A DNA stretch of 64,000 nucleotides, taken from an uncultured Bacteroidota bacterium (GTDB lineage: Bacteria > Bacteroidota > Bacteroidia > Flavobacteriales > Flavobacteriaceae). Location of the stretch: the NCBI GenBank assembly GCA_902598295.1, contig CACKBA010000002.1, positions 8,217-72,216 on the forward strand, written 5' to 3'. The stretch's first letter is position 1. Every line of letters starts with the position of its first letter. Under the pieces are notes generated by a model. The model was not told the origin of the DNA, made no database searches, and saw nothing but the letters and a program-made list of their open reading frames with translations. The position numbers and the translations under genes were made by a program. Below are positions 31,459 to 49,040 of this stretch, piece by piece.

Positions 31459-31483
31459 GTAATTTAAATCCCCTATTGATTGT

Positions 31484-33283: not shown

Positions 33284-33492
33284 TAGTCCGCTTTTAATAA
33301 AAAATTATTATCTTGAAATTTCCACTTAATTTTTATGAGACTAAGTAAGAGAGATAAAGCATTAACAAAAATTGAGATTCCAGTGGTTCACTCAATTTAC
33401 TTCCGCGGTAAAAGGTACAAGTATAGTGATTATTTAAAAATTAAGGGGGAGGTAAACAAAAACGAACTTCTTCCCTTCTAGAATTAGAAGGT

Positions 33493-33675
33493 TTACTTAT
33501 TACTAATTATCAAAATTAGACCTGAGTTAATCAATACTAAAGAAACAGTACCAATAAAAAACCAGTCATTAGATTCGTATTTGTACATTACAGCTTCACC
33601 AAAAACGCATAAACCCGAACTGAATAACATAATTCCTAAAAATGCTAAAAGATTTTTTTTATGTTTTGGCTTCAT
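33493..33675 (-). CDS. small two-TM membrane protein (hypothetical)
   Basis: 60-aa ORF with two hydrophobic helices. Coding status unverified. Confidence 0.35.
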   Translation of the reverse strand: MKPKHKKNLLAFLGIMLFSSGLCVFGEAVMYKYESNDWFFIGTVSLVLINSGLILIISNK

Positions 33676-33714
33676 AAATAAGTATCCCTAAAAATGTAAA
33701 TTTACGTTAAATCT

Positions 33715-34365
33715 ATGAACAAGACGGTTACTTTATTTGGTGCTACAGGAATGATTGGTGGAGAGATTTTGAGGCTTTTGATTAATGATGATTATTATAA
33801 GGTTATAAATGTCATAGCAAGAGGAAAGATTGGCATTCAATCAAAAAAAATAAAAAACTACACAATCGATTTTACAAATGTTCAGGACTACAAAAAAATT
33901 ATAAAAAAGAATGATGTAGTGATTGCGTCAATAGGCACAACTCAATCAAAAGTGAACTTTGATAAGACTGAATATCGAAAAGTTGATTACGATATTCTTT
34001 TAAATATCGCTATGGCTTGTAAAACTAATTCAGCATCTTGTTTTTGTTTTGTTTCATCAGCTGGCGCAAATGAAAAGAGTAGAAACTTTTATTTAAAACT
34101 TAAAGGTGAAATTGAAAACTCAATTTTACAGCTCGGTTTAAAATCTTGCTTGATATTTAGGCCATCGCTTCTCTTGGGAAAAAGAAATGAGTTTAGATTC
34201 GGAGAAATGATAGCACAAAAATTTATGCCGTTAGTGTCTTTTTTAATGAGATCCGATTACAAACCTATTAAAGCAGTTGATGTCGCAAAGTCAATGTTAA
34301 TTGAATCAAAAAAAAGCATCAAAGGTCATAAAATATATCATTATTCTGAAATGATATCACAGTAG
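33715..34365 (+). CDS. NAD(P)-binding Rossmann-fold oxidoreductase (NmrA/HTATIP2-like)
   Basis: N-terminal VTLFGATGMIGGE (GxxGxxG). Confidence 0.75.
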   Translation: MNKTVTLFGATGMIGGEILRLLINDDYYKVINVIARGKIGIQSKKIKNYTIDFTNVQDYKKIIKKNDVVIASIGTTQSKVNFDKTEYRKVDYDILLNIAMACKTNSASCFCFVSSAGANEKSRNFYLKLKGEIENSILQLGLKSCLIFRPSLLLGKRNEFRFGEMIAQKFMPLVSFLMRSDYKPIKAVDVAKSMLIESKKSIKGHKIYHYSEMISQ

Positions 34366-34381
34366 ATTATCGGGTAAGTCT

Positions 34382-35206
34382 TTAGTTTTTCCCGCTAACA
34401 GTGTGATTGTTGTGACCGTAGTCCTCCGAAAGCCATTTTTTTATCCATTCTTTGGGATTGTATTCACTCTCTCTTAAGAAATGAAATTCTTGATATTTGC
34501 AATCATCCATATATATACTCTCATTTTCAGACAAACGGTTGAATTCATCGAGTTCCTCATTACTCATAAAAGATTTTTTGTCGTATTCTCCCCCTTTCAA
34601 AGTTGGCGGTTCTTCATCAGCATATAAAGCTTCAAAAGATACATACCCGACCTCTTCTCCTTCTTCGTTCTCACCTGACCATGAATCCTTAACTATCATT
34701 ATATATGGATCGTTTTCACAGATTTTCATAGAATTGATATGATCAATGATTTCAAATGAACCCATCATTAATGTGACATCTATATTGCCTGATTCATCAT
34801 CTTTGTAAAACTCAAAAACATCATCATCATAACTTCCTGAAGAAGCTATCTCTTTCTTAATATCCGCAATATCATTCTCATTATAGAGTCCTAATAAATC
34901 GGCATAAGTAATTTGCTCTAATCCTAACTCTGTGATATTAAATCTCTCTTCACTATTTTCTGATGAGTCCAAAAACCGGTTGATGAATTCTACTTCACTA
35001 ATGATTTCAATATTTAATTCCTCCGCTTTTTCTTTTTTGGAGGGTCCCATTTTATCTCCTGCTAACACAAATGATGTATTTTTGGAAATTGAAGATGATG
35101 CTTTTCCCCCTGCTTCATCAATTATGTCCTTTAATTCTTTTCTTGAAAATTTTTCAAAAACACCTGAAATGACAACTGCTTTATCTTTTAGACTCTCTTT
35201 ACTCAT
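34382..35206 (-). CDS. stand-alone BRCT-domain protein with an acidic C-terminal region of unknown fold
   Basis: N-terminus ..LKDKAVVISGVFEKFSRKELKDIIDEAGGKASSSISKNTSFVLAGDKMGPSKKEKAEELNIEIISEVEF.. closely follows the LigA-type BRCT pattern. The remaining ~190 aa are unrecognised. Confidence 0.8.
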   Translation of the reverse strand: MSKESLKDKAVVISGVFEKFSRKELKDIIDEAGGKASSSISKNTSFVLAGDKMGPSKKEKAEELNIEIISEVEFINRFLDSSENSEERFNITELGLEQITYADLLGLYNENDIADIKKEIASSGSYDDDVFEFYKDDESGNIDVTLMMGSFEIIDHINSMKICENDPYIMIVKDSWSGENEEGEEVGYVSFEALYADEEPPTLKGGEYDKKSFMSNEELDEFNRLSENESIYMDDCKYQEFHFLRESEYNPKEWIKKWLSEDYGHNNHTVSGKN

Positions 35207-35243
35207 GGATTTGGTTTTAATTTCTTATACAATTTACTAAAAA

Positions 35244-35251
35244 TAATTTTG
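35244..35251 (+). promoter_or_regulatory. Bacteroidota -7 box-like motif (TAnnTTTG) upstream of the AAA+ operon
   Basis: taattttg lies 68 nt upstream of the ATG at 35319. No convincing -33 TTG at proper spacing. Confidence 0.2.
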
Positions 35252-35318
35252 GATAATTAGTAGCAAATACTTGATGGTTTACCTCAATTTTCTTAATTTT
35301 TAAAAATATAATAATTAA

Positions 35319-36449
35319 ATGTCAATAGAATTTATAGAGTTTGGTAAAAAAGGAAACAGCGAAGAAATTAAAGAAATTTTATCTCACATATTTCAAAGAA
35401 ATAATGACTTAAGCAAAGAGAATAAAAGAGGAACCGCTGTTTGTATATGGGGTACACATGGATTAGGTAAGACCCAAATAGTAAGAGACTATGCAAGAGA
35501 AAAAAAATGGAAGTTTTCTTATATAGCCCCTGCACAATTTGAAGAGATGGGCGATTTGCATGGTATGCCTAATGTTGTTGACCCTGATGAAACAATTTCA
35601 GGTGATGAATATACTGTTTACAGTCCACCTGACTGGGTTCCAAGAGAAGATGGTCCAGGAATATTGTTGTTAGACGACATAAACAGAGCCGATGATAGAA
35701 TATTGAGAGGTTGTATGCAATTGTTGCAAAACTTTGAATTAACATCCTGGAAATTACCCCCAAAATGGCAGATTGTTGCTACTGCAAATCCTGAGGGCGG
35801 AGACTATTCAGTTACTCCAATGGATGGAGCAATGCTTACAAGAATGTTACACGCAACATTAAAGTTTGATGCCAAAATATGGGCTCAATGGGCCTATTCC
35901 GCCAATGTTGATGAAAGAGGAATTTCCTTTGTATTAACTTATCCCGAACTTGTAAACTCAGAAAGAACAACCCCTAGAAGTTTAACTCAGTTTTTTGAAC
36001 AAATTGCATCAATTGATGACCTAAAGGGAAACCTACAACTGGTTGAAGCTCTAGCTTTAAGTTCATTGGATGAGGTAACAGTTTCTTCATTCATCGCCTT
36101 TATTAACGATGAATTGACGCAACTTATAGATCCCGAAGAAATTCTAGATACTGAAGATTTTAAAAAAGTAGCAAAGAAAATTAAAGATATTTCTGTTGAT
36201 GACTCTGGGGCGAAGAGAGTAGATCGTTTGTCAACGATGTGTGCAAGATTGTACTTGAAGCTAATTTCTGACAATTACACTCAAGAGAAAAATCATGGAA
36301 AAAATTTAGTTGAATTCTTGCTTCTAGACACAATCCCAAATGACCTGCTCATGAGTTTATACATGGATTTACAAAAGCATGGTGGGGATGAAATTAAAGA
36401 AATGACAAGGGACAAAAAATTAGCAAGTAAACTATTATCAACCCTTTAA
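35319..36449 (+). CDS. MoxR/NorQ-like AAA+ ATPase (AAA_5 type)
   Basis: Walker A GTHGLGKT (aa 45-52), Walker B ILLLDDINRAD (aa 115-125), ..LLQNFEL.., sensor-1-like IVATANP. The C-terminal ~180 aa are helical and unassigned. Confidence 0.85.
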   Translation: MSIEFIEFGKKGNSEEIKEILSHIFQRNNDLSKENKRGTAVCIWGTHGLGKTQIVRDYAREKKWKFSYIAPAQFEEMGDLHGMPNVVDPDETISGDEYTVYSPPDWVPREDGPGILLLDDINRADDRILRGCMQLLQNFELTSWKLPPKWQIVATANPEGGDYSVTPMDGAMLTRMLHATLKFDAKIWAQWAYSANVDERGISFVLTYPELVNSERTTPRSLTQFFEQIASIDDLKGNLQLVEALALSSLDEVTVSSFIAFINDELTQLIDPEEILDTEDFKKVAKKIKDISVDDSGAKRVDRLSTMCARLYLKLISDNYTQEKNHGKNLVEFLLLDTIPNDLLMSLYMDLQKHGGDEIKEMTRDKKLASKLLSTL

Positions 36450-36459
36450 ATCAACAATT

Positions 36460-39099
36460 ATGCTTTCAAAAGACGAAAAACAAAACATTGCCAAAATAAA
36501 GAAACTGATTCGGACTCGTGATTTCGAAAAAATTGAAATGGGGATAGAATTGGTTAGGTCAATTAACAACCCCAAGATTTTTGATGAATTATTGGGCAAT
36601 GTTGAAATAGAAAGAGGAGTCAAATTTAAACATGATTGGAAAGGGGCTGGACCAGATGAACATTATTTTCAAACTGCAATTCTTGGTTTGTTAAACTTTT
36701 CTCCTAAAGGCTCAAAAGGATATGAAATAAGAGACTCCGTACAAAATCTAATTATAGAGGGTGAAATTAAAAGCGGGTATTCTTATGTTCGATCAAAAGT
36801 CTTCCTCAAATATTTATCAAATTTCTCCAATCTTAAAGTATTACGAGTTGAAAATTATAAAGAAATCGTTGGGTTTGAGGAAATTTATAATTTACCGATT
36901 GAAGATCTTGAACTGGATCGAGGTTATACTCTGCCAAATCATGAAAAGAAATGGGCTTTTAAAAAACTTAAAAGAATAATTTTTACCCTTCCCAATAGCA
37001 ACTCAGCTAGATATACTGACGATCCTGAAGAAAAAACTGAACCGAAAAAAATGCAGGGACTGGACTTTTTATCCAATTTAACAAGCCTAGAAACAGTAAA
37101 AATAAGTAGGGGGTTTGGTTTTTCAGGTGGATCTGATTTCTCCATTAAAGGGTTGAGTTTTTTGAAGAATTTAAAATTTCTCTATATGTGGGATTTAGGC
37201 ATTGATAATGTCAATGATTTAATCACTCTGGAAAATTTAAATTATGTGAAATTGCAGGAAAACAACCTTACTGATATTTCAGGACTCACTTCATCTACTA
37301 ATTTAGAGTTTATTGAGTTAAGAAGCTCAGATAATTTGTCCGATATTACTCCCTTAGGTAAATTAACAAATATCAAATTAATTGATGTTTCTTTTACTTC
37401 TGTAAAATCATTAGAAGGTTTAGAAAACTGCGCCAATCTTCACGGAATAAATTTGGAGCGTACTCTAGTTAAAAATCTTGATGGTTTAATTAATGCAAAA
37501 AATATTTATGGCGTAAACGCTGGTCATTGCAAAGACTTGGAGAATATAGAAGGAATAAAAAATTCATTGAAATTAAAAGAGATTATACTAAACGATTGTC
37601 CATCACTTCTGAATCTAAAAGGAATCGAAAACTGTAAGGATTTAAGAGCAATTACAGTTTCTAACAGTGGGATTTCGAATCTAGATTCTTTGATTAATTG
37701 TAAGAAAATATTTAGGAACAATAAGACAAAATGGGATGAAGAAACACCAGAGTGGGATGGCAATACTGCATCACAAAATGATCCTTTTCGCATGGTTGTG
37801 TCTCCAGAATTTCGTAAAGCTGTAGAAAAGGTTGGTTATGGAAATCTTTATGGAGCAAAGTATTTTAGTGAGGTTAGTAGGGATTATTATCCCAACAGAA
37901 GTTGGAGCGACCCAACTTTAAATGAATTTAAAATTAATGACTGTCCAAATCTAGAATCTGTTAAAGGCTTAAAAAATTCGGGGATTCAATTGCTTGTAAT
38001 CAATGGTTGTCCAAGCATTAAAAAAATTGACTATCTCGCTGAATTTCCGCTTTTGCAATGCTGTGATTTTACTGATTGTGCTAATCTTGAAAGTGTGGAG
38101 AGTTTATCTTCTCTCAGTTTGATTGATGTATTAATCTTAAAGAAATGTTATAAAGTCAAACCTAAACCAAGATTCTTATTAATGGACTCATTTGAAAAAA
38201 CTAATGAGTACTTATCAAAATTTAAAAAGAATATTTCAGAAGTCAAATTAGATTCTGAAGATAAAATTACATCTGAAAAACTAGAAAAGCTATTGCTTTC
38301 AGATGATTACAGTGATATTGAATTGGGTTTAGAATTGGCAAATTCTATTTCTGATAAAGATATCTTTGACTATTTGCTAGAAGGTGTTAAATTTTTAAAC
38401 AATAAAATTGTTACAAACAGCAAGTTTTTAGGAAATGACAAAACAAAAGAGTTTAGAGATTTTGCTCTCGAAGGTTTAATTTCGATCGCACCAGATTCAT
38501 GTAAGATTGCAAAGGAAATCAAAGCGAGCTTCAAAGAAAAAACACTGACTGGGTCTAATATAACTTCTCTCTTATGCGTATCAGGATTTAGTAATCTAGA
38601 AAAACTTAAGGTTACAAAGACTAATATTTCTACTGTCTCTGATTTATCTAGATTGAAAAATTTAAAAACCTTACTATTCAATGAGAATTCCGAGTTGAAA
38701 AACCTATCTGGAATTGAAGGTCTGGATAATCTGGAACTTCTTGGCATGAGAAATTGTAAAAGTCTTACAGACTTGAGTCATGTTTCAGGTTTTAAAAAGC
38801 TCTCAGGTGTTCAAGTTAATAATTGTGGTGTAAACTCAACAAATGGTTTAAAGGATCTTCCGTCATTGAAGAATGTTAACCTGAATGATAATCCTCAACT
38901 AGAAAACATAGATGAGATAGGTCAAATTGGTTCATTAGAAATTGTGACAATTAGTGGATGTCCAAACATTAAAAGTTTAGATTCATTAACAAAACTTGCC
39001 AATCTATCGTTTTTAAGGGTTGATAAACATAATCTTCAAAATACAGAAGGTATTTCTTCATTAATAAAACCTATAATGGAGGGACTAAGAAAAGAATAA
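36460..39099 (+). CDS. cytoplasmic leucine-rich-repeat protein built as two [helical module + LRR array] units
   Basis: No signal peptide. Long arrays of ~22-aa L..L..L.L..C..L..L.GL repeats. The helical module occurs at the N-terminus and again around nt 38250. Confidence 0.8.
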   Translation: MLSKDEKQNIAKIKKLIRTRDFEKIEMGIELVRSINNPKIFDELLGNVEIERGVKFKHDWKGAGPDEHYFQTAILGLLNFSPKGSKGYEIRDSVQNLIIEGEIKSGYSYVRSKVFLKYLSNFSNLKVLRVENYKEIVGFEEIYNLPIEDLELDRGYTLPNHEKKWAFKKLKRIIFTLPNSNSARYTDDPEEKTEPKKMQGLDFLSNLTSLETVKISRGFGFSGGSDFSIKGLSFLKNLKFLYMWDLGIDNVNDLITLENLNYVKLQENNLTDISGLTSSTNLEFIELRSSDNLSDITPLGKLTNIKLIDVSFTSVKSLEGLENCANLHGINLERTLVKNLDGLINAKNIYGVNAGHCKDLENIEGIKNSLKLKEIILNDCPSLLNLKGIENCKDLRAITVSNSGISNLDSLINCKKIFRNNKTKWDEETPEWDGNTASQNDPFRMVVSPEFRKAVEKVGYGNLYGAKYFSEVSRDYYPNRSWSDPTLNEFKINDCPNLESVKGLKNSGIQLLVINGCPSIKKIDYLAEFPLLQCCDFTDCANLESVESLSSLSLIDVLILKKCYKVKPKPRFLLMDSFEKTNEYLSKFKKNISEVKLDSEDKITSEKLEKLLLSDDYSDIELGLELANSISDKDIFDYLLEGVKFLNNKIVTNSKFLGNDKTKEFRDFALEGLISIAPDSCKIAKEIKASFKEKTLTGSNITSLLCVSGFSNLEKLKVTKTNISTVSDLSRLKNLKTLLFNENSELKNLSGIEGLDNLELLGMRNCKSLTDLSHVSGFKKLSGVQVNNCGVNSTNGLKDLPSLKNVNLNDNPQLENIDEIGQIGSLEIVTISGCPNIKSLDSLTKLANLSFLRVDKHNLQNTEGISSLIKPIMEGLRKE

Positions 39100-39105
39100 C
39101 TTATT

Positions 39106-40284
39106 TTGAGTAAGGACATTAACGAGGAAATATCAAGGTGTATAATCAAGATGCTTTTAAAAGAACCTTTTTATGCACATTTTTTAAGTGGTATAATTAG
39201 AGAAGTTACTGACAAAGTACCAACAGCAGCTGTCGGATTTAAAACAGGGAAAATTGCCTTATATGTAAATGAAAATTTCTTTCTAAAAGAATTGAAATCA
39301 GTGAATGAAAGAGTTGCTGTAATTAAACATGAAACACTTCATATAATATTCAAACACTTATTCAGAATGAAAACAAAAAGCTATGACAACCAGCTTTTTA
39401 ATGTTGCTGCTGATATTGTTGTTAACCAATTGATTGACCCTTGGAAACTACCGGACTCAGCAGTTACTTTAGATTCATTTCCTGAATTAAAACTTCCAAA
39501 GGATAAATCTGTGGAATGGTATTATGAAAATTTAAAACAAAATGCATCAAAAGATTCAGATTACAGAAAAAGATTAGACGAAATCTTTGAGAAAGGTACA
39601 CACAGTGATCATAGAATGTGGGGGGAAAATGAAAACTTTAGTATGGAAGTAGTGGAAACAGAGGTTGACAGAATGATTATTCAAGCAAGGGATAGAACAC
39701 CTATTAAAGACCATGGTACAATTCCACTAGGAATTAAATCCTTGATAAAAAATATTATTGAAAAACGAAATCCAAAAATAAATTGGAAAAGAGCCTTAAA
39801 ACTTTTTTCATCAACCAGCAGAAGAACAAGAGTTTATCATACGATGAAAAGATTTAGTAAAAGATTTGGAACCCGACCGGGTATCAAAATCAAAAGATTT
39901 CAAAAACTAGCTGTTGCAATTGACACTTCTGGTTCAATTAACATAGATGATTTTAATACTTTTTTTGGCGAAATACACAGCATGTGGAAATTTGGAGCAG
40001 AAGTAGATGTCCTTGAGTGTGATGCTGAGATTCAAAAGAAATATTCGTATAATGGGCGTATACCTGAATTCATTCATGGTGGTGGGGGAACTTCTTTTGA
40101 CCCAGTATTTGAACATATTAAAAAAAATAGATTTGAAAGATATGATGGTTGCATATATTTGACAGATGGATATGCACCTGAACCAAGAACAAAGCCACCT
40201 TGTAAAGTTTTTTGGTGTATAACAAAAGATGGTAAAATAGGCCCTCATCTTAAATTTGGAAGGGTTGTTAAAATGACTAATTAA
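39106..40284 (+). CDS. DUF2201-type protein: HExxH metallopeptidase-like N-domain plus VWA domain
   Basis: HETLH at aa 75-79 within ..AVIKHETLHIIFKHL... MIDAS-like ..LAVAIDTSGSI... Start is TTG 39106 or ATG 39151. Confidence 0.8.
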   Translation: MSKDINEEISRCIIKMLLKEPFYAHFLSGIIREVTDKVPTAAVGFKTGKIALYVNENFFLKELKSVNERVAVIKHETLHIIFKHLFRMKTKSYDNQLFNVAADIVVNQLIDPWKLPDSAVTLDSFPELKLPKDKSVEWYYENLKQNASKDSDYRKRLDEIFEKGTHSDHRMWGENENFSMEVVETEVDRMIIQARDRTPIKDHGTIPLGIKSLIKNIIEKRNPKINWKRALKLFSSTSRRTRVYHTMKRFSKRFGTRPGIKIKRFQKLAVAIDTSGSINIDDFNTFFGEIHSMWKFGAEVDVLECDAEIQKKYSYNGRIPEFIHGGGGTSFDPVFEHIKKNRFERYDGCIYLTDGYAPEPRTKPPCKVFWCITKDGKIGPHLKFGRVVKMTN

Positions 40285-40295
40285 AAATTTATTAT

Positions 40296-43200
40296 ATGAT
40301 TTATTTAGATGACAATGGTGTTACAGTGAAAGCTGTAAGTGGTGCCAAAGGAGCAAAAGCAGGTGAGGTTTATGAATTAAATGGAGAAAAATATTACGTA
40401 GCTGTAGATGCCTATGAATTACGAGCAATAATCAACAAAAGGAGTACTTCAAAAGGTAAAGATTTTCCACTAAACAGGATTGTTACTTCTAAACTCACCA
40501 CCATGAATAGTTTGTTTTCATACCAAAAAGACTTTAATGAAGATATTTCTAATTGGGACACAGGAAGAGTTAAGTCCATGTCCGAAATGTTTAAGTGTTG
40601 TGAAAAGTTCAACCAACCAATTGGGAATTGGGATGTTAGTAAAGTGACAGCTACAATGGAAATGTTTTATGGAGCCAAAGCATTCAATCAACCGATTGGG
40701 GACTGGAATACTGCAGTTTTAGATAATTTTTCAAATATGTTTGAAGGAGCTGAATCATTTAATCAACCAATTGAGAACTGGAATATGTCAAGGTGTGGTA
40801 ATATGCTGGGAATGTTCAAAGGGGCCTCATCTTTCAATCAATCTCTAAAAAACTGGAAAATTGGAAGTGGTCAACCTGGAAATGATTGGTTTTACAGCCC
40901 AAGAATGTTTTCTCTATTTGAAAATGCAAAAGCCTTTAACGGTGATTTGAGCGGATGGAGGCTTCGCGGTTCACTGACAGGACTTTTTAAAGGGGCCTCA
41001 TCTTTCAACCAACCCTTAGACAGCTGGGATGTTGAAAATGTTGATTCTATGAAATCCCTCTTTGAAGGAGCAGAATCATTCAATCAGGACATTTCTAATT
41101 GGAATACATCAAATGTAACATCCTTTGAAAACACATTTTATGGAGCTTCTTCTTTCAATCAAAATATTGGCAAATGGAATACATCAAAGGCCACTAATTT
41201 TTTAAACATGTTTAGAGAAGCATCAGCATTTAATCAAGATATTTCTGGGTGGGATGTTTCTAACGTAAAGAAAGTGAATGGATTATTTAGAGGAGCAAAA
41301 GCATTCAATCAAGATATAAGTTCATGGAAATTGAACGAAAGTATAAAGTTCTCTAAAACAATTTTTCAAGATGCTAGTTCTTTTGACATAGAGAACCACT
41401 CTCCGTTTAATGAAATAAAATCTACGACAAAAAGAGTGAGTGTTGCAACACAAGCCGCAAGTTCACTTGGAATTGAGTTAACAGCAGATGATAAAAAAAC
41501 TATTTCCAAGATTAAAAAATTATTAATATCAAGGGATTTAGAACAAATTGATTTGGGTGTGGAATTATTACTATCACTTGCTAAAACAGAGGTTTATGAA
41601 ACTCTTTTATTTGGATGCAAAATAATGGACGATGGAAAATTAGAAAGACCTAAAATGTTTACTGGCTCTGGTCCAGCTCAACCATTTTTAGACTATGCTT
41701 TATTAAACCTCATCGCAGATGCACCAAAGGGGGCCAAAGTGGACGAATCAATTGACAAGGAAAATATAACTTCTCTTGATTTTGACATGTTTGATTTTAA
41801 CTCTTTTGAGTATAGCACAACGATTCAAAATTTCGTTTCAGTTAGTAAATTTTATAATCTAAAATCTCTTTCAATTGATTTTAAAAAATTCAATATCAAA
41901 ACTGCTTGCTATGAAGATAGAGACTCTGAAAAAGAAAGTGGGATCGACCTTTCAAATGTGTTTTCTGGAAATAAGATTACTCATTTAAAAGTAAGAGAAG
42001 TCAAAGGCAGTCTTAATTGGTTAGAAAATTTCACGCAACTTCAAAAACTAGAATTCAGGAGTGCTCGATATTACAATCTTGATGATACTGATTGCTTTAA
42101 CAATTTAAAAAATTTGGAAGAATTAATATTCCTTGCTGAGCGATATCCAGATTTGGATTTTCTTTCAGAATGTAGTAAAATAAAAAAGCTTAAACTTAGT
42201 TGCATCAAACCGGGTTATGGAGAGGACGAATCTGGAAAATTAAAAAATATTGATTTTTTGGCAAATTTGGGTGAATTGGAGGATTTGAGAATTGACTCTA
42301 TAATTCCTGAAATGAATATTGACGGAATACATTCCTGTAAAAATTTAAAATATTTATCAATACCTATAGCTGGTGATGAAGATCTTTCTGGGTTGAAGAG
42401 TTGCAGTTCTCTTGAAACCTTGATTCTTAAATCAGGCTGGGATTCTCTGACGGGACGTGGATGGGGTCATAATTTTGATATATCAGGTAGAATTAATGAT
42501 TTACAAGGATTGAAAGATTTAAAAGATTTAAAAGATTTAAAAATTGAGAAATTTAATTTTTTCGGTTTGGGGAATGGGAACTTAATGAGTGATTTGAAAG
42601 CAAAAGAAAGTCAATCAAATGCAAGAGTTTCGGGATCAGACATCCGAATGATTGATTCTGTTATTAGATACAAAGCACTTCCTTTTACAGGCACACTTTT
42701 CTATAATTACAGACATCCATACAATCTCCGGACTCTTAATCGCAGATCTTCCGCTGATGATAATCATATTTTTAGTGAGTGTGAGATTGTTGAGGGTTTA
42801 AAAGATGGTTTATACAAAGAGTTCTATACAACAGGCAAACCAAAGTTTGAAGCTTTATATGAAAAAAATAAACTCAGTAAAATAACGGCATTCTACGACG
42901 CCAAGGGAGAAAATATTTTAAATAGTAATGGCGCTACGTTAAGTTACGACCTAGAGAGTGCTGACGTACATAGAATTGGTGGAGATTCAGGTGGTTTTTT
43001 AAAAAACAGCAAACCATTTAATGGATTTTGTTACTTAGAAATAGACACTCAATCATCATACCTTTCCAAAGACATTATATATGGGGAATCTCTATTTGAT
43101 ATTTTAAGAGATACGATTCAACAAGAATCTTTTGATCATCAAAATCCTGAATTAAGCAAGTTTGGTTTACTTCTACACAATAGGGATGCTAAGATTTCAG

Positions 43201-44657
43201 TTGTTTTAAAAATCAAGGATGGACTCATTTCAAATGATATTTTTCTTGCTGGCTCAAAAGAATTCTCTAAAATTACTGTTGAAGATGATTATGATTTTGA
43301 AAGAATGAATCATGAAGACAAATCAGCATTTGAAAAAATTGATGACAACAAAAAGCACAGGCTCCAAATTTATTTTCATAAACTCTCAAGTCTTGTTTTC
43401 AAGGCTGAATCATTACCCGAAACAGATGATGATGATATTGCGGTTTTATTAACTAAAGGAGTAAAACAAGGGAGGTTTAGCAATTCCACTTCACAGATGC
43501 ATGAGATTCCCATGTTTTACTATTTAAAATCCATCATTAATGGCGAAAAGATGTCAAAAAGACAACAAAATTTAAATAGACCTAAACTCTCAACAGAGGA
43601 TAAAAAAGCATTTTCAGAAATTAAAAAGCAGTTGACAAGCAGAGACTACAGCAAAATTGACGAGGCAATATCAAAGTTAAATGCCCTAAATCTCGATGAA
43701 TTATTTGAAACATTACTTGAGGGTTGTGAAATACCCGAATTTAATCCAAATGAAATTTATCCCAAGATTATCAGAAATAAATTCTTCACTGGATCTGGAC
43801 CAGCTCAACCAAGCTTAGATTATGCTCTTTTCTGTTTAATAGCAAATGCACCAACTGATGCAAATATTCACGATTCGCTTCGGTCTGAAAATATCACAGA
43901 TTTAAATGTAAAAACCTTTGGTCTTGCTCCAATTCCACCTGAGATTAAGGATGGTTTTATTCCGCTAGATAATTTAAAGCACTTGAATAATTTAATTATT
44001 GACCTTGAAATTTTTCAAGAACTAAATAAGGGTAGAGATAAGTGGTTTATAAACTCGAATATTAAGAAACTGGAGCTAACGGCAAAAGGAAGTCTAAAAT
44101 TTTTTAATAATCTAAAATCTTTAGAATATTTAGATATAGAGTTTGGATATTATGGTGATTCTATAAAAGACTATGAGGCTTTAGAAAGCTTAGAAAATCT
44201 GAAGGAGTTGAAGTTAACTATTGGGAATTATGATAAGATATCATTAGGATTTATTAAAAAGAACAAAAAACTTAAGAAACTCTATATTGATTTGAAAAAT
44301 AGTTGGGGAGATAGTCATCCAGTTGATGATTTGAGTGCAATTGAACATTTGAATGAGTTGGAAGAATTGCATGTTAAGGAAATATCAACAACAGATTTAA
44401 AGGCACTATCAAAATGTAAGGGTTTAAAAAAATTAACCCTTGAGTTCTATGAGTATGGGCGAGAAGATTTTTCATTTGATTACACCTTGTTGAACAATTG
44501 TCAATCTTTGGAATCTTTTTCAATCAATGGGTTGAATGACTATAAAATGAATGCTAGAATTCTTGATTTCAATTCATTAAGTGGTTTAAAAAACCTAAAG
44601 CATCTTTTAGTTGATAAAGTTTCCATTGTAAATACAAAATCAATTTTTTTAGATTAA
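40296..44657 (+). CDS. 1453-aa multidomain protein: BspA/DUF285-type repeats, two [helical module + LRR array] units, MORN/YwqK-like repeats
   Basis: No signal peptide. About 12 repeats of ..F.GA.SFNQ(P/D)I..W(D/N).S.V... lie between about 40480 and 41400. MORN-like ..EGLKDGLYKEFYTTGKPKFEALYEKNKLSKITAFYDAKGENI.. lies near 42780-42920. Confidence 0.8.
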   Translation: MIYLDDNGVTVKAVSGAKGAKAGEVYELNGEKYYVAVDAYELRAIINKRSTSKGKDFPLNRIVTSKLTTMNSLFSYQKDFNEDISNWDTGRVKSMSEMFKCCEKFNQPIGNWDVSKVTATMEMFYGAKAFNQPIGDWNTAVLDNFSNMFEGAESFNQPIENWNMSRCGNMLGMFKGASSFNQSLKNWKIGSGQPGNDWFYSPRMFSLFENAKAFNGDLSGWRLRGSLTGLFKGASSFNQPLDSWDVENVDSMKSLFEGAESFNQDISNWNTSNVTSFENTFYGASSFNQNIGKWNTSKATNFLNMFREASAFNQDISGWDVSNVKKVNGLFRGAKAFNQDISSWKLNESIKFSKTIFQDASSFDIENHSPFNEIKSTTKRVSVATQAASSLGIELTADDKKTISKIKKLLISRDLEQIDLGVELLLSLAKTEVYETLLFGCKIMDDGKLERPKMFTGSGPAQPFLDYALLNLIADAPKGAKVDESIDKENITSLDFDMFDFNSFEYSTTIQNFVSVSKFYNLKSLSIDFKKFNIKTACYEDRDSEKESGIDLSNVFSGNKITHLKVREVKGSLNWLENFTQLQKLEFRSARYYNLDDTDCFNNLKNLEELIFLAERYPDLDFLSECSKIKKLKLSCIKPGYGEDESGKLKNIDFLANLGELEDLRIDSIIPEMNIDGIHSCKNLKYLSIPIAGDEDLSGLKSCSSLETLILKSGWDSLTGRGWGHNFDISGRINDLQGLKDLKDLKDLKIEKFNFFGLGNGNLMSDLKAKESQSNARVSGSDIRMIDSVIRYKALPFTGTLFYNYRHPYNLRTLNRRSSADDNHIFSECEIVEGLKDGLYKEFYTTGKPKFEALYEKNKLSKITAFYDAKGENILNSNGATLSYDLESADVHRIGGDSGGFLKNSKPFNGFCYLEIDTQSSYLSKDIIYGESLFDILRDTIQQESFDHQNPELSKFGLLLHNRDAKISVVLKIKDGLISNDIFLAGSKEFSKITVEDDYDFERMNHEDKSAFEKIDDNKKHRLQIYFHKLSSLVFKAESLPETDDDDIAVLLTKGVKQGRFSNSTSQMHEIPMFYYLKSIINGEKMSKRQQNLNRPKLSTEDKKAFSEIKKQLTSRDYSKIDEAISKLNALNLDELFETLLEGCEIPEFNPNEIYPKIIRNKFFTGSGPAQPSLDYALFCLIANAPTDANIHDSLRSENITDLNVKTFGLAPIPPEIKDGFIPLDNLKHLNNLIIDLEIFQELNKGRDKWFINSNIKKLELTAKGSLKFFNNLKSLEYLDIEFGYYGDSIKDYEALESLENLKELKLTIGNYDKISLGFIKKNKKLKKLYIDLKNSWGDSHPVDDLSAIEHLNELEELHVKEISTTDLKALSKCKGLKKLTLEFYEYGREDFSFDYTLLNNCQSLESFSINGLNDYKMNARILDFNSLSGLKNLKHLLVDKVSIVNTKSIFLD
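42513..42539 (+). repeat. in-frame 9-bp tandem repeat (aaagattta x3), encoding part of LKDLKDLKDLK
   Basis: Read directly; three perfect copies. Confidence 0.9.
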
Positions 44658-44676
44658 GTTTAATATATTTACTTGA

Positions 44677-45270
44677 ATGGGCAGGAAAATTAAATTTAAC
44701 ATAGAAGGTCAAGTTCTTGAGTCAGGAATAACAAAAGTTGATAGAAAAAAACTATACGGTTCATCCAAAAAAATAGTAAAAGACAACAATGGAAATGAAT
44801 GTGTGATATCTGACCTTTATCTCGGTTCAAAAATATTACCAAGAGGTTCAATCTCCCAAGTTTTGATGAACAGCAAGGGGCATCATGTAAGCAGATCTGA
44901 GTTGGTTGGATTTAATCAGAATAATGAAAAGGTTGAAAAAGTTGAGTCCATTTTTAATTTGGAAAATAAATGCTTAAAAGTTGATATAGATGAGTTTTTA
45001 TCAGTCAATGTAAAGTCTATCTATCAATTAGATATTGATGACGAACAAATTGATAACTGGAAAAAGTATTTTACAAATGATGAGGTTTACTTTTTAGTCT
45101 TTAACTATAGGGCTGATTACGAGGGTGATGATGCATATATTATTTCTAATGGTGAACACTTTTTTATAACTGTGGGGAAAAAAAATGAATATACTTACTT
45201 AGAACAGGAAAACATCAATCTTGAAGAGGAGGAAGAAATTGATGATGAATTAGACTTTTCAATGCTTTAA
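44677..45270 (+). CDS. hypothetical protein with a strongly acidic C-terminal tail
   Basis: 197-aa ORF in the operon, ending ..NLEEEEEIDDELDFSML. No family recognised. Confidence 0.55.
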   Translation: MGRKIKFNIEGQVLESGITKVDRKKLYGSSKKIVKDNNGNECVISDLYLGSKILPRGSISQVLMNSKGHHVSRSELVGFNQNNEKVEKVESIFNLENKCLKVDIDEFLSVNVKSIYQLDIDDEQIDNWKKYFTNDEVYFLVFNYRADYEGDDAYIISNGEHFFITVGKKNEYTYLEQENINLEEEEEIDDELDFSML

Positions 45271-45272
45271 TT

Positions 45273-45980
45273 ATGCTTCGATACATTAGAATACAAGACA
45301 ACAATAAAAGAGACGCAGATATAAACTTTAAATCTGTGAGGACAGGTAATTTAATTTATTTAGCTCTTGAAAGTGGAGAGAAACCAATAAGTAAAAAAGT
45401 ACTTAAATCTACTGTCGAAAATAGCATTCCGCATTTAGTGAATAAATCCGAACCAACGGATGATGACTATGCAAAGTTTTCTGAAAAATTATTAAATGAT
45501 GACTCTGAAATGGATTTTGAACTATTTGGGAAATTTATAGGAAAAACGGATAAGATTTATACTGATAAGGAGTTAAACCCTGTTTACAATGTAACCATAA
45601 GTGAACAAATTTTAAATCCTCAAGGTGAGTTGGTGGAAGAAAAACAACAAAAACATATTAGCTCAAATATAACTGGTGAAGATATTGTTAAATGGACTGG
45701 TAAATATCTACCAAAGAAAAAATTATATAATAAAATTGTGTTGAGTTCAAAATACGAATTGAAACATGTCAACGGATTAACTTTTGACTTTTTGTTTACA
45801 ATTGCAAAAGATTTACATGACAAAGATTCTTTTATGATGCTTGGTGGAGGAAAAGGAAATGAACCTTTGGTTATGAATGAAAACGGGAAACCTTACAGGG
45901 CTTTTTTAGAGGGCAAAGTTAAAGGAAACTCTTATTGCTTAATTATGCACCTTTCAAATCAAGAATATAAAAACGTATGA
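45273..45980 (+). CDS. hypothetical protein
   Basis: 235-aa ORF starting 2 nt after the previous stop. Its stop overlaps the ligase start (ATGA). No family recognised. Confidence 0.55.
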   Translation: MLRYIRIQDNNKRDADINFKSVRTGNLIYLALESGEKPISKKVLKSTVENSIPHLVNKSEPTDDDYAKFSEKLLNDDSEMDFELFGKFIGKTDKIYTDKELNPVYNVTISEQILNPQGELVEEKQQKHISSNITGEDIVKWTGKYLPKKKLYNKIVLSSKYELKHVNGLTFDFLFTIAKDLHDKDSFMMLGGGKGNEPLVMNENGKPYRAFLEGKVKGNSYCLIMHLSNQEYKNV

Positions 45981-47326
45981 TTAACAATCAATTATCTGAA
46001 AAATTATTAAACTACAAGAACTCTGTAGCAAGTAAGTATATACCTGTACGAAGTGATCAAATATTATCCCGAGTTTTTGATTTGGATAAATATTACGTTT
46101 CCACAAAAATGGATGGACACCTCTGTTTTATCATAAAAGAAAAAAATGATATTAGTATTTTAAATCACAACAGCAATCCTTTTGAGAGGGAAGAACTGAT
46201 TAGTGAAATAGAAAAAATATTGAAAGATGATGATGGGGTTTTTGTTGGTGAAATATATTTTCATAAAGAAAATGAAAGAACTCGCTCATACAATTTAAAA
46301 AGAGAAATAAGTGAAAAAAACAGCGACATAAGAATTGCTCTTTTTGATGTTTTGAATCACAAAGGCAAGGAGTTTGTGGAGAATGATTGGAACACGAAAA
46401 AAGACTTACTTAAGTCACTTTTCCCAAGTAAAGGCAAGGTTTATTTTTTAGATGAAATTGAATTAACAAGCAGGAAAGATATTGAAGATGAGTTCAAAAC
46501 CAGAGTTGGAGATACCAAAGAGGAAGGACTAATTGTTAGGGGTCAAAATGGACCTGTCTTTAAAGTAAAAGAATATTTAAGTTTTGATATGGCTGTGCTG
46601 GGATATGTTAATGGATACCAAAACAATCCCTCTTTGATGAAGGAAATTTTACTTGGTGTTATGGTTGATAAGGACACCTACCTTGTTGTTGCAGTTGTTG
46701 CTAATGGATTTTCAGTGTCTGATAGAGAAAAACTTGCTATAGATTTTGAAAAACTCAAGGTGAATTCAGATGTGTTGCAAATGTCTAGTTCAAAGTTGCC
46801 CTTCACAATGATAGAACCAAAGATTATAGCTGAGGTTGAATCAACTGATATCATAAACTCTACATCAACAGGAGTTATTAAGAAACATATTTTGAAATTT
46901 GATAAAACTTATCAAGTTCAAAATTTTTCACCATCTGTAAGCCTTACTACACCAGTTTTTGTCAGATTTAGAGATGATAAAAAAATAAGTCAAAGTGATA
47001 TTGGTGTAAATCAAATAGAGAGAGTCATAGCTTTTGCTGAGGAAAAAGAAAATGAAAGTGATAAAAAGCCATCAAAGATTCTAAACAAAGAAGTTTATGT
47101 TAAGGAAACCAAAGGGTTAAAAATGGTGAAGAAATTCTTTATTTGGGAAACAAATTCAAATAGCACAGACTACCCAAAGTATGTTTATTATGGAATTGAT
47201 TATTCTCCATCAAGGGCTAGCAAACTAAATCGAGAAATTAAGGTTTCGGATGACAAGAAACAGATAGAAAAAATATTTCAAGATGAAATCGAGTCCAATG
47301 TAAAAAAAGGTTGGAATAAATTTTAA
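45977..47326 (+). CDS. ATP-dependent DNA ligase (NTase + OB core) with a WGR-like C-terminal extension
   Basis: Motif I VSTKMDGH (K44, codon 46106-46108), III FVGEIYF, IIIa ALFDVL, IV EGLIVRG, V VFKVKE, VI PVFVRFRDDKK. The tail ends ..VKKGWNKF. Confidence 0.85.
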   Translation: MINNQLSEKLLNYKNSVASKYIPVRSDQILSRVFDLDKYYVSTKMDGHLCFIIKEKNDISILNHNSNPFEREELISEIEKILKDDDGVFVGEIYFHKENERTRSYNLKREISEKNSDIRIALFDVLNHKGKEFVENDWNTKKDLLKSLFPSKGKVYFLDEIELTSRKDIEDEFKTRVGDTKEEGLIVRGQNGPVFKVKEYLSFDMAVLGYVNGYQNNPSLMKEILLGVMVDKDTYLVVAVVANGFSVSDREKLAIDFEKLKVNSDVLQMSSSKLPFTMIEPKIIAEVESTDIINSTSTGVIKKHILKFDKTYQVQNFSPSVSLTTPVFVRFRDDKKISQSDIGVNQIERVIAFAEEKENESDKKPSKILNKEVYVKETKGLKMVKKFFIWETNSNSTDYPKYVYYGIDYSPSRASKLNREIKVSDDKKQIEKIFQDEIESNVKKGWNKF

Positions 47327-47365
47327 AGATAGTCCCTTTACAGACGGCTATGGGGTAGTTCTTAA

Positions 47366-47467
47366 ATGCGAAAAGACAAAAAATCACTTGCTGAAACACA
47401 TCCAGAAATTGCTCAACAATGGCATTCAACAAAAAATGGGGATTTAACCCCTAATGATGTTTCGTAA
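47366..47467 (+). pseudogene. truncated zinc-ribbon (DUF4379-like) gene fragment
   Basis: The 33-aa ORF MRKDKKSLAETHPEIAQQWHSTKNGDLTPNDVS reproduces the ..LA..HPEL..EWH..KNG.L.P.DV.. repeat opening of that family. It stops before any Cys-rich part, 9 nt from the tRNA 3' end. Confidence 0.5.
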
Positions 47468-47476
47468 AATAAGAAG

Positions 47477-47550
47477 TGGAGAAGATGGGACTCGAACCCA
47501 CGACCTCTTGACTGCCAGTCAAGCGCTCTAGCCAGCTGAGCTACATCCCC
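47477..47550 (-). tRNA. tRNA-Ala (anticodon GGC)
   Basis: Hand-folded cloverleaf: GGGGATG TA GCTC AGCTGGCTA GAGC G CTTGA CTGGCAG TCAAG AGGTC GTGGG TTCGAGT CCCAT CTTCTCC A. It has U33, A37 and the G3:U70 Ala identity pair. There is one U6-U67 mismatch in the acceptor stem. CCA is not encoded. Confidence 0.9.
47511..47550. repeat. 40-bp direct repeat, copy 1 (tRNA-Ala positions 1-40, inside the intact gene)
   Basis: actgccagtcaagcgctctagccagctgagctacatcccc is identical to 49041-49080. Confidence 0.95.
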
Positions 47551-49040
47551 TAACAGATATAAATCCTTTTTTTGAGCCAAGCACTTTTATTACAATTTCC
47601 ATCATTTCGTCCACTGCACATTTTTACACCATTTTGTTGCATTTTTGGCCTTTTAAAAGTGTTCTTATCATTGCCCAAATCTACAAGTTTCTTTTGTGTT
47701 TTTGTGTAGTATTTTTTTAAATTAGTGATTATGAAGAAACTAACCTGAAAGATTTAGGCGGGGCTGAAGGTGCTGCATTTTAAAATGAAAAAATTCCTAA
47801 AAAATATTACTGGTTTAGAATATGCTGTTTGTATAATTGTACTTTCATTTTTAGTCAATGTTTTAGGTAATAAAAAAAACATCTATGGTGAAATAATAGT
47901 TGTCGAATATCCCACATTGACAGTCATAGGGGCTCTAAGTCTTGCTGTTTTATCATTATATATTACTTATTTCAGATGGTCTCGTTTAAAATTGGGTAAT
48001 GTTTTTTTTGTGTTTTTTTGCATTGCAAATTTAGTTGTAGGGTTTTACGCAGAGGTTTACGGAGATACGAGTTTTGATGATGCAATGAATTATTGGATGG
48101 AAAACCCTGGATCCAGTTATATACCTGTCGCTTTAGCACCTCTAACTCCTTTGGTGAATTTATTTAGTATTATTATGTATTTAATCTTGATTTTTAAAAA
48201 TGTCAAAGAAAATACAAGAGGAAATAAACAAGGGAAAAATAACTTTGACTCAAGTGTCTCTAGCCCTAATATGCCAGATACTGTTTCACCTAAATATGAT
48301 GAAAAATGGCTAAATGAGGAAAAAATAAGGCTTGATAAAGAGCTTAATGAGCCTATATTCAAAGACCTTAAAGCGGTTTTCGCTGACACGGAATTACCCA
48401 ATTCATTAAAAAATGATCTAAAGAATAATACAATTAATAAAAATCTCAAAAATGCACTTTTAAATACTAAAGCTGAAGATTTTCGAGAACTTGAAAAACT
48501 GATATGTAAGTTTTATCCAGATGAAGCAATGATATGGAATGATGAAGTTGAAGATTTTGTAAGTTACAAAGATATAAAGGGCTCCACATTATTTGTTGAC
48601 AATGATATGAATGTTGATGATTCTTTGGGTGCATTAGCTTTCTTGGGTAAAGTAAAGGGTGTAGAAAAAGAAAAGGTGGTATTTGAAATAAATACATTCA
48701 AAATTTTAGATGAAAAAAATCCACCCTTTACAGACATAAATGGTAAATGGTACAATAAATTTGGAAATACAATAATGAGATGTGTCTCTGAAAAGAAATT
48801 TGAAAAGGAACTCAATAGCTTACTTGAATTAAATAATATTCCAAAAAATTCAGCGAAGATTATTATTACAGAAGAAATGGCTGAAATCATTAATAAAAGT
48901 GGAGGAATTCCTGAAAATATGGAACCAATTAAATATTATGAGGGGGAAGGTTTTAATATTGAGTTACCACCAATTGAAAAGGGTAAACCAAAAATTATTG
49001 TTCTAAAAAAGTCAGTTTAGTGAAGATTATTAATTTTCTA
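47551..49040. mobile_element. putative remnant of a tRNA-targeted insertion (one ORF, no integrase)
   Basis: The segment is bracketed by the two 40-bp tRNA 5'-half repeats. The repeat ends at the anticodon loop. Confidence 0.35.
47785..49020 (+). CDS. hypothetical membrane protein (about 4 N-terminal TM helices plus a soluble Lys/Asn/Glu-rich C-domain)
   Basis: Long ORF. ATG at 47785 (MKKFLKN..) preferred over the GTG at 47770. No family recognised. Confidence 0.55.
   Translation: MKKFLKNITGLEYAVCIIVLSFLVNVLGNKKNIYGEIIVVEYPTLTVIGALSLAVLSLYITYFRWSRLKLGNVFFVFFCIANLVVGFYAEVYGDTSFDDAMNYWMENPGSSYIPVALAPLTPLVNLFSIIMYLILIFKNVKENTRGNKQGKNNFDSSVSSPNMPDTVSPKYDEKWLNEEKIRLDKELNEPIFKDLKAVFADTELPNSLKNDLKNNTINKNLKNALLNTKAEDFRELEKLICKFYPDEAMIWNDEVEDFVSYKDIKGSTLFVDNDMNVDDSLGALAFLGKVKGVEKEKVVFEINTFKILDEKNPPFTDINGKWYNKFGNTIMRCVSEKKFEKELNSLLELNNIPKNSAKIIITEEMAEIINKSGGIPENMEPIKYYEGEGFNIELPPIEKGKPKIIVLKKSV

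Follow-up and report, generated by a model that had tools for sequence, protein, structure and literature searches.

Why should an AAA+ ATPase, a metallopeptidase, giant leucine-rich repeat (LRR) proteins and a DNA ligase be encoded side by side in one compact block of bacterial genes? The question is raised by positions 34382-47326 of a 64,000-nt stretch of DNA, referred to here as the window (contig CACKBA010000002.1, positions 8,217-72,216 of the forward strand, assembly GCA_902598295.1), from an uncultured Flavobacteriaceae bacterium, an AT-rich marine flavobacterium of about 30% GC. The block consists of eight genes. Module A (34382-44657) encodes a BRCT protein, an AAA_5 ATPase, an LRR protein of 879 aa, a zinc-metallopeptidase fused to a domain of the von Willebrand factor A (vWA) type, and a DUF285/LRR giant of 1453 aa; module B (44677-47326), hereafter the trio, encodes two small proteins of 197 and 235 aa and an ATP-dependent DNA ligase. 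An earlier reading of this DNA (the original prediction) had proposed a candidate conflict or DNA-transaction system. We find that the block is a composite of a fixed trio and a facultative partner set. Judging from predicted folds, the trio is quite probably a Ku-like/ligase end-joining module, two-subunit and cryptic at the sequence level. To the wider reading, that the trio joins DNA ends and that module A is a facultative accessory layer, for remodelling and scaffolding, on a system resembling non-homologous end joining (NHEJ), we give a probability of about 0.5.

The entire block was found again on other contigs at 51-93% protein identity, and since the same eight genes recur in this way it is not a chance assembly. 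Gene-neighbourhood analysis bore out the expectation that the set would recur elsewhere as a tight co-directional block. What it did not bear out is one obligate seven-gene system: there are instead two separable modules, each found without the other, the trio in most lineages standing by itself or beside NT5C/DUF2779 genes. Contigs whose vWA protein is 89-91% identical to that of the window are of two types. In the first (L001-3 and L006 among the related loci) the full block is present, from BRCT through ligase; in the second (L004, L005 and L007) the AAA_5, LRR and vWA genes are followed by unrelated genes, and the trio was not seen.

The trio itself is held together far more strictly. Of the first 600 pattern matches to a profile of the 235-aa protein, on marine metagenome contigs, at least 529 proved to be coding relatives, and in the 80 loci fetched with this profile the trio is essentially invariant. 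Essentially all related loci of sufficient length (more than 90), those of the 48% and 72% GC lineages included, have the 197-aa, 235-aa and ligase genes together; the 235-aa gene always lies between the other two or adjoins them, and three further distant homologues, on short contigs, keep the conserved gene order. The two small genes had been taken for ORFans, a view that no longer holds, as their families comprise 1239 (197-aa) and 2706 (235-aa) database proteins, and for the latter an exhaustive search gave 493 clusters (50% identity).

Neither small protein matches Pfam, NCBIfam, PHROGs or PADLOC. Both probably have Ku-like folds, as predicted structures suggest. The AlphaFold model of the 197-aa protein has a predicted local distance difference test score (pLDDT) of 69.7 and a predicted template modelling score of 0.60. 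Compared with the PDB by Foldseek, its best 50 matches are all Ku (Mycobacterium tuberculosis, Bacillus subtilis, human Ku70/Ku80), with E values of 1.4e-3 to 2.5e-2, a probability of mostly 0.95-1.0 and template modelling (TM) scores of 0.27-0.45, and these 50 matches represent only about four independent proteins. As a control, the same model was compared with a viral structure library; the matches were scattered and unrelated, at E 0.12 or worse, which shows the appearance of a non-specific outcome. The 235-aa protein yielded a poor model from a 43-sequence alignment (pLDDT 46.4), and Ku made up 48 of its 50 best matches in the PDB (top match 1jeq_B, 8.7e-3).

Both proteins are about the size of the bacterial Ku core, and features of their C-termini can be added to the predicted folds. 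The tail of the 197-aa protein is conserved in 30 sequences: an acidic linker leads to an invariant D-F-[SAG]-M-[FL] tip, which reads DFEML in L097/L099, the lineages of 48% and 72% GC; this tail looks like a recruitment peptide. The C-terminal extension of bacterial Ku is Lys-rich, and some members of the 235-aa family carry a C-terminal Lys/Ala/Pro-rich, histone-H1-like tail or a SAM domain. With small proteins that are widespread and have predicted Ku-like folds, the 3' end of the block would be an NHEJ-like module rather than the unexplained 'nucleic-acid-acting output' of the original prediction.

The catalytic motifs of the ligase are intact (KxDG and motifs III-VI), residues K44, D46, G47, E92, E183, G184, R188, K196, K198, R332, D334 and K335 being invariant in seven ligases. 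The nucleotidyltransferase and oligonucleotide-binding domains (aa ~37-335) are followed by a conserved C-terminal domain of about 85 aa, of no assigned family, which is kept even in the 48% and 72% GC lineages. The enzyme has no N-terminal DNA-binding domain and no polymerase (POL) or phosphoesterase (PE) domain, and among NCBIfam models it comes closest to TIGR02779, which describes the ligase domain of NHEJ LigD (1.5e-17, below cut-off). By Pfam, a LigD-type polymerase (AEP) and phosphoesterase are absent from the window ligase and from the block as a whole. A WGR domain, proposed for checking by the original prediction, was not found at the C-terminus by Pfam (E up to 10 for seven homologues, up to 1 for two distant ligases) or by profile search of the PDB, and hhalign against the PARP1 WGR gave a probability of 0.9%. 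One ligase homologue, in the 72% GC locus L097 (7465-8922), has lost the KxDG lysine, with SPLVAG in place of STKMDG; its motifs IV and V have degenerated, and no ligase domain is detected in it by Pfam, while the C-terminal domain is retained. Its sequence suggests that it may be a catalytically dead scaffold.

In other lineages the trio is accompanied by genes for end processing. In the distant locus L099 it is flanked by genes for an EEP phosphoesterase and for an AEP primase-polymerase. The primase-polymerase, encoded directly upstream of the trio (2914-4203; AEP-TOTE in Pfam, 6.9e-7), carries a fused HAD-like region at its C-terminal end, whose HAD motif, VCVDLDGVL (VCVDLDGVLAQ), is of the NT5C type, a fusion that links the stand-alone NT5C genes of flavobacteria to end processing; in many Flavobacteriales the trio comes after NT5C and DUF2779 genes. 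A constant core that would bind and seal DNA ends, combined with interchangeable polymerase, phosphatase, phosphoesterase and DUF2779 genes, follows the logic of NHEJ. In L013, the trio adjoins SMC and topoisomerase I genes, and an inserted gene for a 240-aa DUF2971 protein (1982-2704) separates the 197-aa-like gene from the 235-aa-like one.

The comparison with bacterial NHEJ (Ku plus LigD) is close in several respects. A candidate end-binding gene adjoins the gene of an ATP-dependent ligase with intact motifs, the family models nearest to this ligase are LigD ligase domains, Ku is matched by the fold predicted for the 197-aa protein and, less strongly, by that predicted for the 235-aa protein, basic Lys-rich tails are found on some 235-aa homologues, and polymerase, phosphoesterase and nuclease accessories lie beside the trio in other lineages. 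For bacterial Ku, too, an extended C-terminus is described (PMC4889933). The differences are equally clear: the small proteins fall outside the Ku family by sequence, two subunits that look unrelated stand in place of a single homodimerising Ku, one subunit has an acidic tail with a hydrophobic tip, and the ligase carries a novel C-terminal domain and no fused POL/PE. The hosts also differ. Classical bacterial NHEJ correlates with large genomes (PMC7719229), and within the Bacteroidota Ku is listed only in Chitinophagia-type genomes (PMC11936186), whereas hosts of the trio include marine bacteria of about 30% GC with contigs of 1.8-2.0 Mb (three trio contigs). If the small proteins are Ku-like, an entire branch of end joining in bacteria has escaped surveys based on sequence models of Ku, the 235-aa family by itself accounting for 493 clusters at 50% identity, and this branch occurs in abundant AT-rich marine bacteria with contigs of about 2 Mb rather than in the large genomes of classical NHEJ. 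Some of the genomes scored as 'LigD-only' may then be complete.

The partner set is built around the ATPase and the vWA-metallopeptidase. The ATPase scores 27.4 bits with AAA_5 (cut-off 22) and fails with AAA_3, the MoxR family proper (17.1, cut-off 27). Its Walker A, GTHGLGKT, is intact; its Walker B (aa ~115-126) is ILLLDDINRADD, with Asp where the catalytic Glu of AAA+ proteins normally stands, and this DD form is found in all seven aligned homologues (62-93% identical). From these residues, the protein may be a slow ATP hydrolyser or a nucleotide-gated switch. The vWA protein combines HETLH with a complete metal-ion-dependent adhesion site (MIDAS; DTSGS...GGGGT...LTDG). The Walker, HExxH and MIDAS motifs (DTS[GA]S, GGGGT, LTDG) are kept in homologues at 57-71% identity, those of the vWA protein at 57-61%, and both proteins are 91-92% identical to their L001 counterparts. 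A PDB sequence search gave no relative for either.

This pair is common well beyond the locus. The vWA-metallopeptidase has 2664 database relatives, and the two proteins match phage families over their full length (AAA_5 to phrog_1297, 8e-43; vWA-peptidase to phrog_1314, 2e-67). Relatives of the vWA-peptidase occur in 250 phage records, all at less than 30% identity, with N4-like phages, jumbo phages, PBS1 and a cyanophage among them. In jumbo phages, a MoxR-vWA pair with an N-terminal metallopeptidase has been proposed to be a virion-assembly chaperone (Iyer et al. 2021, PMC7824862). The phage pair has the same two-protein architecture as ours but differs by its low identity, and the cellular version has LRR, BRCT and ligase neighbours, whereas no viral contig carries the 235-aa gene. 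The phage relatives in phrog_1314 are widely annotated as 'HNH endonuclease', a label that looks like a propagated mis-annotation because the match spans the DUF2201_N peptidase and the vWA domain.

A zincin-type peptidase and an AAA+ ATPase next to a ligase, a BRCT protein and end-binding candidates could also be put together as a pathway for DNA-protein crosslinks or blocked ends, in which the peptidase and the ATPase would degrade adducts, nucleases and phosphatases would clean the ends, and the Ku-like proteins would hold them for the ligase to seal. Wss1 and SPRTN degrade DNA-protein adducts with p97, and HAD, EEP and DUF2779 genes do accompany the trio elsewhere. We nevertheless regard this explanation as very improbable: Pfam reports no SprT or WLM similarity for the vWA-peptidase protein, no DNA-binding domain is detectable in it, and in phages, where the pair is common, the role proposed is in virion assembly (PMC7824862).

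The remaining members of module A are repeat proteins and the BRCT protein. An N-terminal signal-like stretch is absent from both the 879-aa protein and the 1453-aa giant. The former is made of two units, each starting with a helical module of about 100 aa that we call the H-module (aa 1-98 and 596-700) and continuing with LRRs. The giant is composed of an N-terminal domain, five DUF285/PARCEL stretches, an H-module (395-494), LRRs, a MORN-like region (the Pfam match to MORN_2 is weak), a second H-module (1097-1204) and further LRRs, and its gene contains 75-nt repeats at 40590-41262. The H-module (consensus KKLLxSxDxxxIxxGxELLxSL...LLxGxxI...G.GP...LDYALxxLIAxAP) has no Pfam match and was previously unnamed; a hidden Markov model of it gives matches at 1e-42. 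H-modules are the best-conserved parts of the giants, at 82-93% in close relatives, compared with 46-77% for the first LRR stretch of the 879-aa protein, and no gene of the block evolves faster than that of the 1453-aa giant, whose product shares 51% identity with the one in L001. In the fetched loci, the module marks LRR proteins that lie beside the trio, AAA_5/vWA or a STAND NTPase; in L064, L072, L078 and L080 such proteins adjoin the trio with no AAA_5/vWA in view. Two open reading frames (ORFs) take the place of one in some close relatives, for the 879-aa LRR gene in L018 (1265-3854) and for the giant in L006 (8234-12935); frameshifts, assembly errors or ongoing decay and remodelling may account for these splits.

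The BRCT protein has an N-terminal LigA-type BRCT, which in NCBIfam aligns with the BRCT at the C-terminus of LigA models, and an acidic C-terminal part of about 190 aa with no family match. Its gene adjoins the block in L001-3 and L006, and elsewhere (L023/24, L025/26 and L056) BRCT genes neighbour either the trio or vWA; in L029 there is no more than a BRCT-like fragment of 81 aa. A BRCT is embedded in a DUF285/LRR giant at aa 1139-1209 in L009 and at aa 1096-1163 in L026, a fusion that ties BRCT to the LRR giants.

How regularly do these partners accompany the trio? Grouping 91 loci by their 235-aa protein at 90% identity gave 34 clusters, in which we counted neighbours within the sequence in view. 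AAA_5 and/or vWA genes neighbour the trio in 7 of the 34 clusters, an H-module LRR protein in 10, BRCT in 5, and NT5C and/or DUF2779 in 11; the 12 clusters with none of these neighbours are mostly short contigs. When more than 5 kb is available on each side of the trio (8 clusters), AAA_5 is present in 3, LRR in 4, BRCT in 3, and NT5C or DUF2779 in 4. The seven clusters with AAA_5/vWA within 10 kb of the trio show at least five gene orders (window type, L009, L010, L025/26, L048 and L059/77). In L009, a Cryomorphaceae locus, the order is AAA_5, vWA, giant, 197-aa gene, 235-aa gene, ligase; in L010 it is ligase, 197-aa gene, 235-aa gene, AAA_5, LRR, vWA. In L025/26 the trio is directly followed by AAA_5, vWA, a 199-aa gene and BRCT, and the AAA_5 gene of L026 begins 110 nt downstream of the ligase gene on the same strand. 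AAA_5 and LRR genes are found 5 kb downstream of the trio in L048, and LRR and AAA_5 genes 5 kb upstream, on the opposite strand, in L059 and L077. The vWA gene comes directly after the AAA_5 gene in L008, L009 and L025/26 and is separated from it elsewhere only by the LRR gene. The joint cases span clades of the 235-aa protein that share only 45-50% identity.

A mechanism that would account for both modules gives them a common substrate, broken DNA ends. The sequences themselves show the gene content, the motifs, their conservation and the recurrence of the linkage; the Ku-like fold, the pairing of the small proteins as a heterodimer, the ATPase's client and the whole of the biochemistry are what we infer. 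The 197-aa and 235-aa proteins would form a two-subunit Ku-like end-binding complex, as their predicted folds suggest. The C-terminus of Ku recruits LigD, and by analogy the acidic D-F-x-M-F/L tail of the 197-aa subunit might recruit a partner, most simply the ligase via its C-terminal domain; the ligase would then seal the break. The BRCT protein and the H-module/LRR giants would be scaffolds or adaptors at the break. MoxR-vWA pairs such as CbbQ-CbbO and Rea1 grip acidic residues of their clients via the MIDAS. The AAA_5 ATPase would likewise work with its vWA partner, the MIDAS gripping an acidic element of the client and the fused HExxH peptidase being able to cut it. Speculatively, the pair could assemble, remodel or unload the end-joining complex, or cleave it open, one such target being a ring trapped on the DNA once ligation is complete.

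The observations that weigh against this reading concern the small proteins, the ATPase, the distribution of the two modules and the repeat proteins. For both small proteins, Ku was absent from Pfam results at E up to 10 and was not found by single-sequence searches or by profiles of 5-47 sequences against PDB sequences, and hhalign against B. subtilis and M. tuberculosis Ku gave a probability of 1% or less. Because sequence-based methods give no support, the Ku assignment rests on predicted fold and context, with models of moderate (69.7) and low (46.4) confidence, Foldseek E values of about 1e-3 to 1e-2 and TM scores of 0.3-0.45. The two proteins are not detectably related to each other either (hhalign probability 0.3%), and we rejected the idea that they are paralogues. 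As for the ATPase, strong activity is not assured, since Asp replaces the catalytic Glu in its Walker B.

Where distribution is concerned, the trio lacks module A in view in 27 of the 34 clusters, many of them represented by short contigs; because metagenome contigs are short, these absences are weak evidence. In addition, every joint case comes from one order, the marine Flavobacteriales, so that the joint cases are not phylogenetically independent. Both points would be expected if the adjacency had no function and a repair trio and a MoxR-vWA chaperone set merely lay side by side, co-inherited in one flavobacterial lineage. The same can be said of the type 2 contigs, where 8-10 kb around the vWA gene show no trio, and of L028, where the vWA protein is 91% identical to that of the window and the trio proteins only 62-70%, a discrepancy that implies partly separate histories of the two modules. 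The genes themselves make such a coincidence quite unlikely, however. If a genome of about 2 Mb contains each of them once, the odds of their lying within 10 kb by chance are about 1%, and the linkage is seen in at least five orders and orientations across the 45-50% identical clades of the 235-aa protein. The 110-nt distance between ligase and AAA_5 in L026, on one strand, and the spacing of the seven co-directional genes of the window, 2-19 nt apart or overlapping, point in the same direction.

The repeat proteins give rise to a different objection. Across aa 501-1100 of the 1453-aa giant, the LRR/MORN stretches are hypervariable (27-57% in three more distant orthologues), as would be expected of sensors rather than scaffolds. 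Moreover, module A without the trio lies beside AAA_16 STAND NTPases of 1565-1598 aa in L005 (7691-12388) and L007 (495-5291), with a further H-module LRR protein after the STAND gene in L005; this looks more like an immune neighbourhood. Module A could on these grounds be a self-contained conflict system, in which the LRRs sense proteins of an invader, a threshold is imposed by AAA_5/vWA and the metallopeptidase acts as effector, the trio merely sharing the variable region or repairing collateral DNA damage. The contrast between the hypervariable stretches and the conserved H-modules and AAA_5/vWA genes (about 82-93%) suits such a system, as do the flanks of the block, which differ among close relatives, and the general theme of MoxR-vWA ternary conflict systems with repeat-rich components (PMC7159879).

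Set against those ternary systems in detail, the resemblance is partial. Alike are the gene of an AAA_5/MoxR-like ATPase beside that of a MIDAS-competent vWA protein and the presence of a third, repeat-rich component, with a peptidase fused to the vWA domain in our case. The known systems have VMAP, iSTAND, FtsH or a beta-propeller as third component, variable C-terminal effectors on the vWA protein and, rarely, metallopeptidase effectors; the account of Kaur et al. 2020 includes no association with DNA ligase, WGR or SWIM, and LRR figures in its reference list only (PMC7159879). In our block the third component is an H-module/LRR protein, none of the four types, the peptidase is N-terminal and conserved instead of a variable C-terminal effector, and the Walker B is DD. 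PADLOC-DB 2.0 gave a single match, of the BRCT domain to PDC-S48 (5.4e-6, 68 residues), and none for the other seven proteins of the block or for the STAND, DUF2779, AEP and PDDEXK neighbours in related loci, which agrees with the earlier view that no named defence system has this composition.

We therefore think a self-contained conflict system unlikely. Beyond the PADLOC result and the missing third components, BRCT, a domain of the DNA-repair type, is fused into LRR giants, H-module LRR proteins flank the trio even where AAA_5/vWA is not seen, and the linkage to the trio persists through at least five rearrangements. The 'LRR sensor, ATPase switch, output' logic of the original prediction finds no direct support, as no toxic effector, no match to a defence model and no viral or plasmid copy of the 235-aa gene was found; the hypervariable LRRs and the STAND neighbours suggest that the idea is still alive. 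Its other proposal, a role in DNA transactions, fits the evidence.

End joining by the trio, with module A as an accessory layer, also invites comparison with eukaryotes, in which the AAA+ ATPase p97 extracts Ku rings sterically trapped on DNA and Ku itself joins a larger machinery (Ku70/80, Lig4 with BRCT, DNA-PKcs, p97). What the two have in common is a list of domain types only: a Ku-like pair (predicted in our case), vWA, BRCT, an ATP-dependent ligase, giant repeat proteins, AAA+, and HAD phosphatase or nuclease accessories. Eukaryotic Ku carries vWA domains (PMC11936186), whereas in the block vWA, BRCT and AAA+ are separate proteins and of other families (a DUF2201 vWA-metallopeptidase, and AAA_5 instead of p97), and the giants are of the LRR/DUF285 kind instead of being HEAT-repeat kinases. 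There is no evidence of common descent, and the likeness may be one of analogy or no more than apparent. That marine Flavobacteriales possess an NHEJ of eukaryotic style, complete with a heterodimeric cryptic Ku ring, a dedicated ligase, recruitment through tail, BRCT and LRR, and an AAA+/vWA-metallopeptidase that unloads or cuts the ring, seems doubtful to us.

The linkage of the AAA+/vWA-peptidase pair, BRCT and giant LRR proteins to the trio nonetheless offers a testable handle on how Ku rings are removed from repaired DNA in bacteria, and on the role of the DUF2201 vWA-peptidase/AAA_5 pair, common and uncharacterised in cells and in many phages. Were the ring-unloading idea true, it would be the first bacterial answer to the problem of Ku removal and a possible prokaryotic precedent for the association of vWA with Ku. 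No description of the trio, of its linkage to AAA_5/vWA or of the whole combination was found in the open-access literature.

The features of the block and its immediate surroundings are collected in Table 1. Re-reading of the sequence reproduced exactly the eight ORF positions and spacings of the original prediction; every motif that it listed is present in the translations (GTHGLGKT, ILLLDDINRAD, IVATANP, HETLH, DTSGS, KMDG, EGLIVRG, FKVKE, VRFRDDKK), and its domain assignments (LigA-type BRCT, AAA_5, LRR, DUF2201_N, DUF2201/VWA, DUF285, ligase) were upheld by Pfam and NCBIfam.

Table 1. Coordinates of the eight-gene block and adjoining features in the window
Feature	Position	Strand	Basis or remark
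BRCT protein, 274 aa	34382..35206	-	Pfam BRCT 1.7e-12
Divergent spacer, AT-rich, 112 nt	35207..35318	.	Direct sequence reading
AAA_5 (MoxR/NorQ-like) AAA+ ATPase, 376 aa	35319..36449	+	Pfam AAA_5 3.8e-6
LRR protein, 879 aa	36460..39099	+	Pfam LRR_4, LRR_EndoS
DUF2201_N zinc-metallopeptidase fused to DUF2201 vWA, 392 aa	39106..40284	+	Pfam 2.4e-17, 1.1e-17
DUF285/LRR giant, 1453 aa	40296..44657	+	Pfam DUF285 2e-126
197-aa protein, predicted Ku-like fold	44677..45270	+	AlphaFold model and Foldseek
235-aa protein, probable second Ku-like subunit, predicted DNA binder	45273..45980	+	Low-confidence model and Foldseek
ATP-dependent DNA ligase, 449 aa	45977..47326	+	Pfam DNA_ligase_A_M 1.7e-12, DNA_ligase_A_C 1e-8
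33-aa ORF MRKDKKSLAETHPEIAQQWHSTKNGDLTPNDVS	47366-47467		Between ligase and tRNA
tRNA-Ala(GGC)	47476-47550	-	3' end towards ligase

The co-directional genes are separated by gaps of 10, 6, 11, 19 and 2 nt, followed by a 4-nt ATGA overlap. In the divergent spacer, TAATTTTG at 35244-35251 fits TAnnTTTG, which we take to be the -7 promoter consensus of the Bacteroidota; a scan for promoters and terminators gave counts equal to the shuffled expectation (56 sigma-70 sites compared with 59.6 expected), the sigma-70 model being unsuited to this phylum. The truncated gene and the tRNA that the original prediction had placed beside the end of the operon are indeed there, the 33-aa ORF looking like the N-terminal fragment of a larger gene.

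That prediction had also taken the block for accessory DNA at a tRNA, for which the support is weak: the flanks are variable, but an integrase and an att repeat are both missing. The flanks of the block in the window match none of the 96 related loci compared. Nucleotide homology to the closest relatives, L018 and L019, whose trio proteins are 91-96% identical, ends at the ligase stop codon (47326-47330), and the different sequences that follow in the window, L018 and L019 indicate a sharp recombination boundary. A mobile-element origin was considered and rejected: a scan of flanking ORFs gave no integrase, no att-like repeat is present in 33000-48500 and the tRNA is the only RNA gene, nor was the 235-aa gene found on IMG/VR viral contigs or PLSDB plasmids. 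The block adjoins a variable region, and nothing shows a mobile island. Downstream of it lie the tRNA-Ala gene and unknown genes, and upstream a gene for an NAD-binding protein and two tandem sulfatase genes (29944-33283; 504 and 599 aa). Together with a xylanase/esterase-like gene at 23380-24525, these sulfatases are ordinary polysaccharide-utilisation content for a marine flavobacterium.

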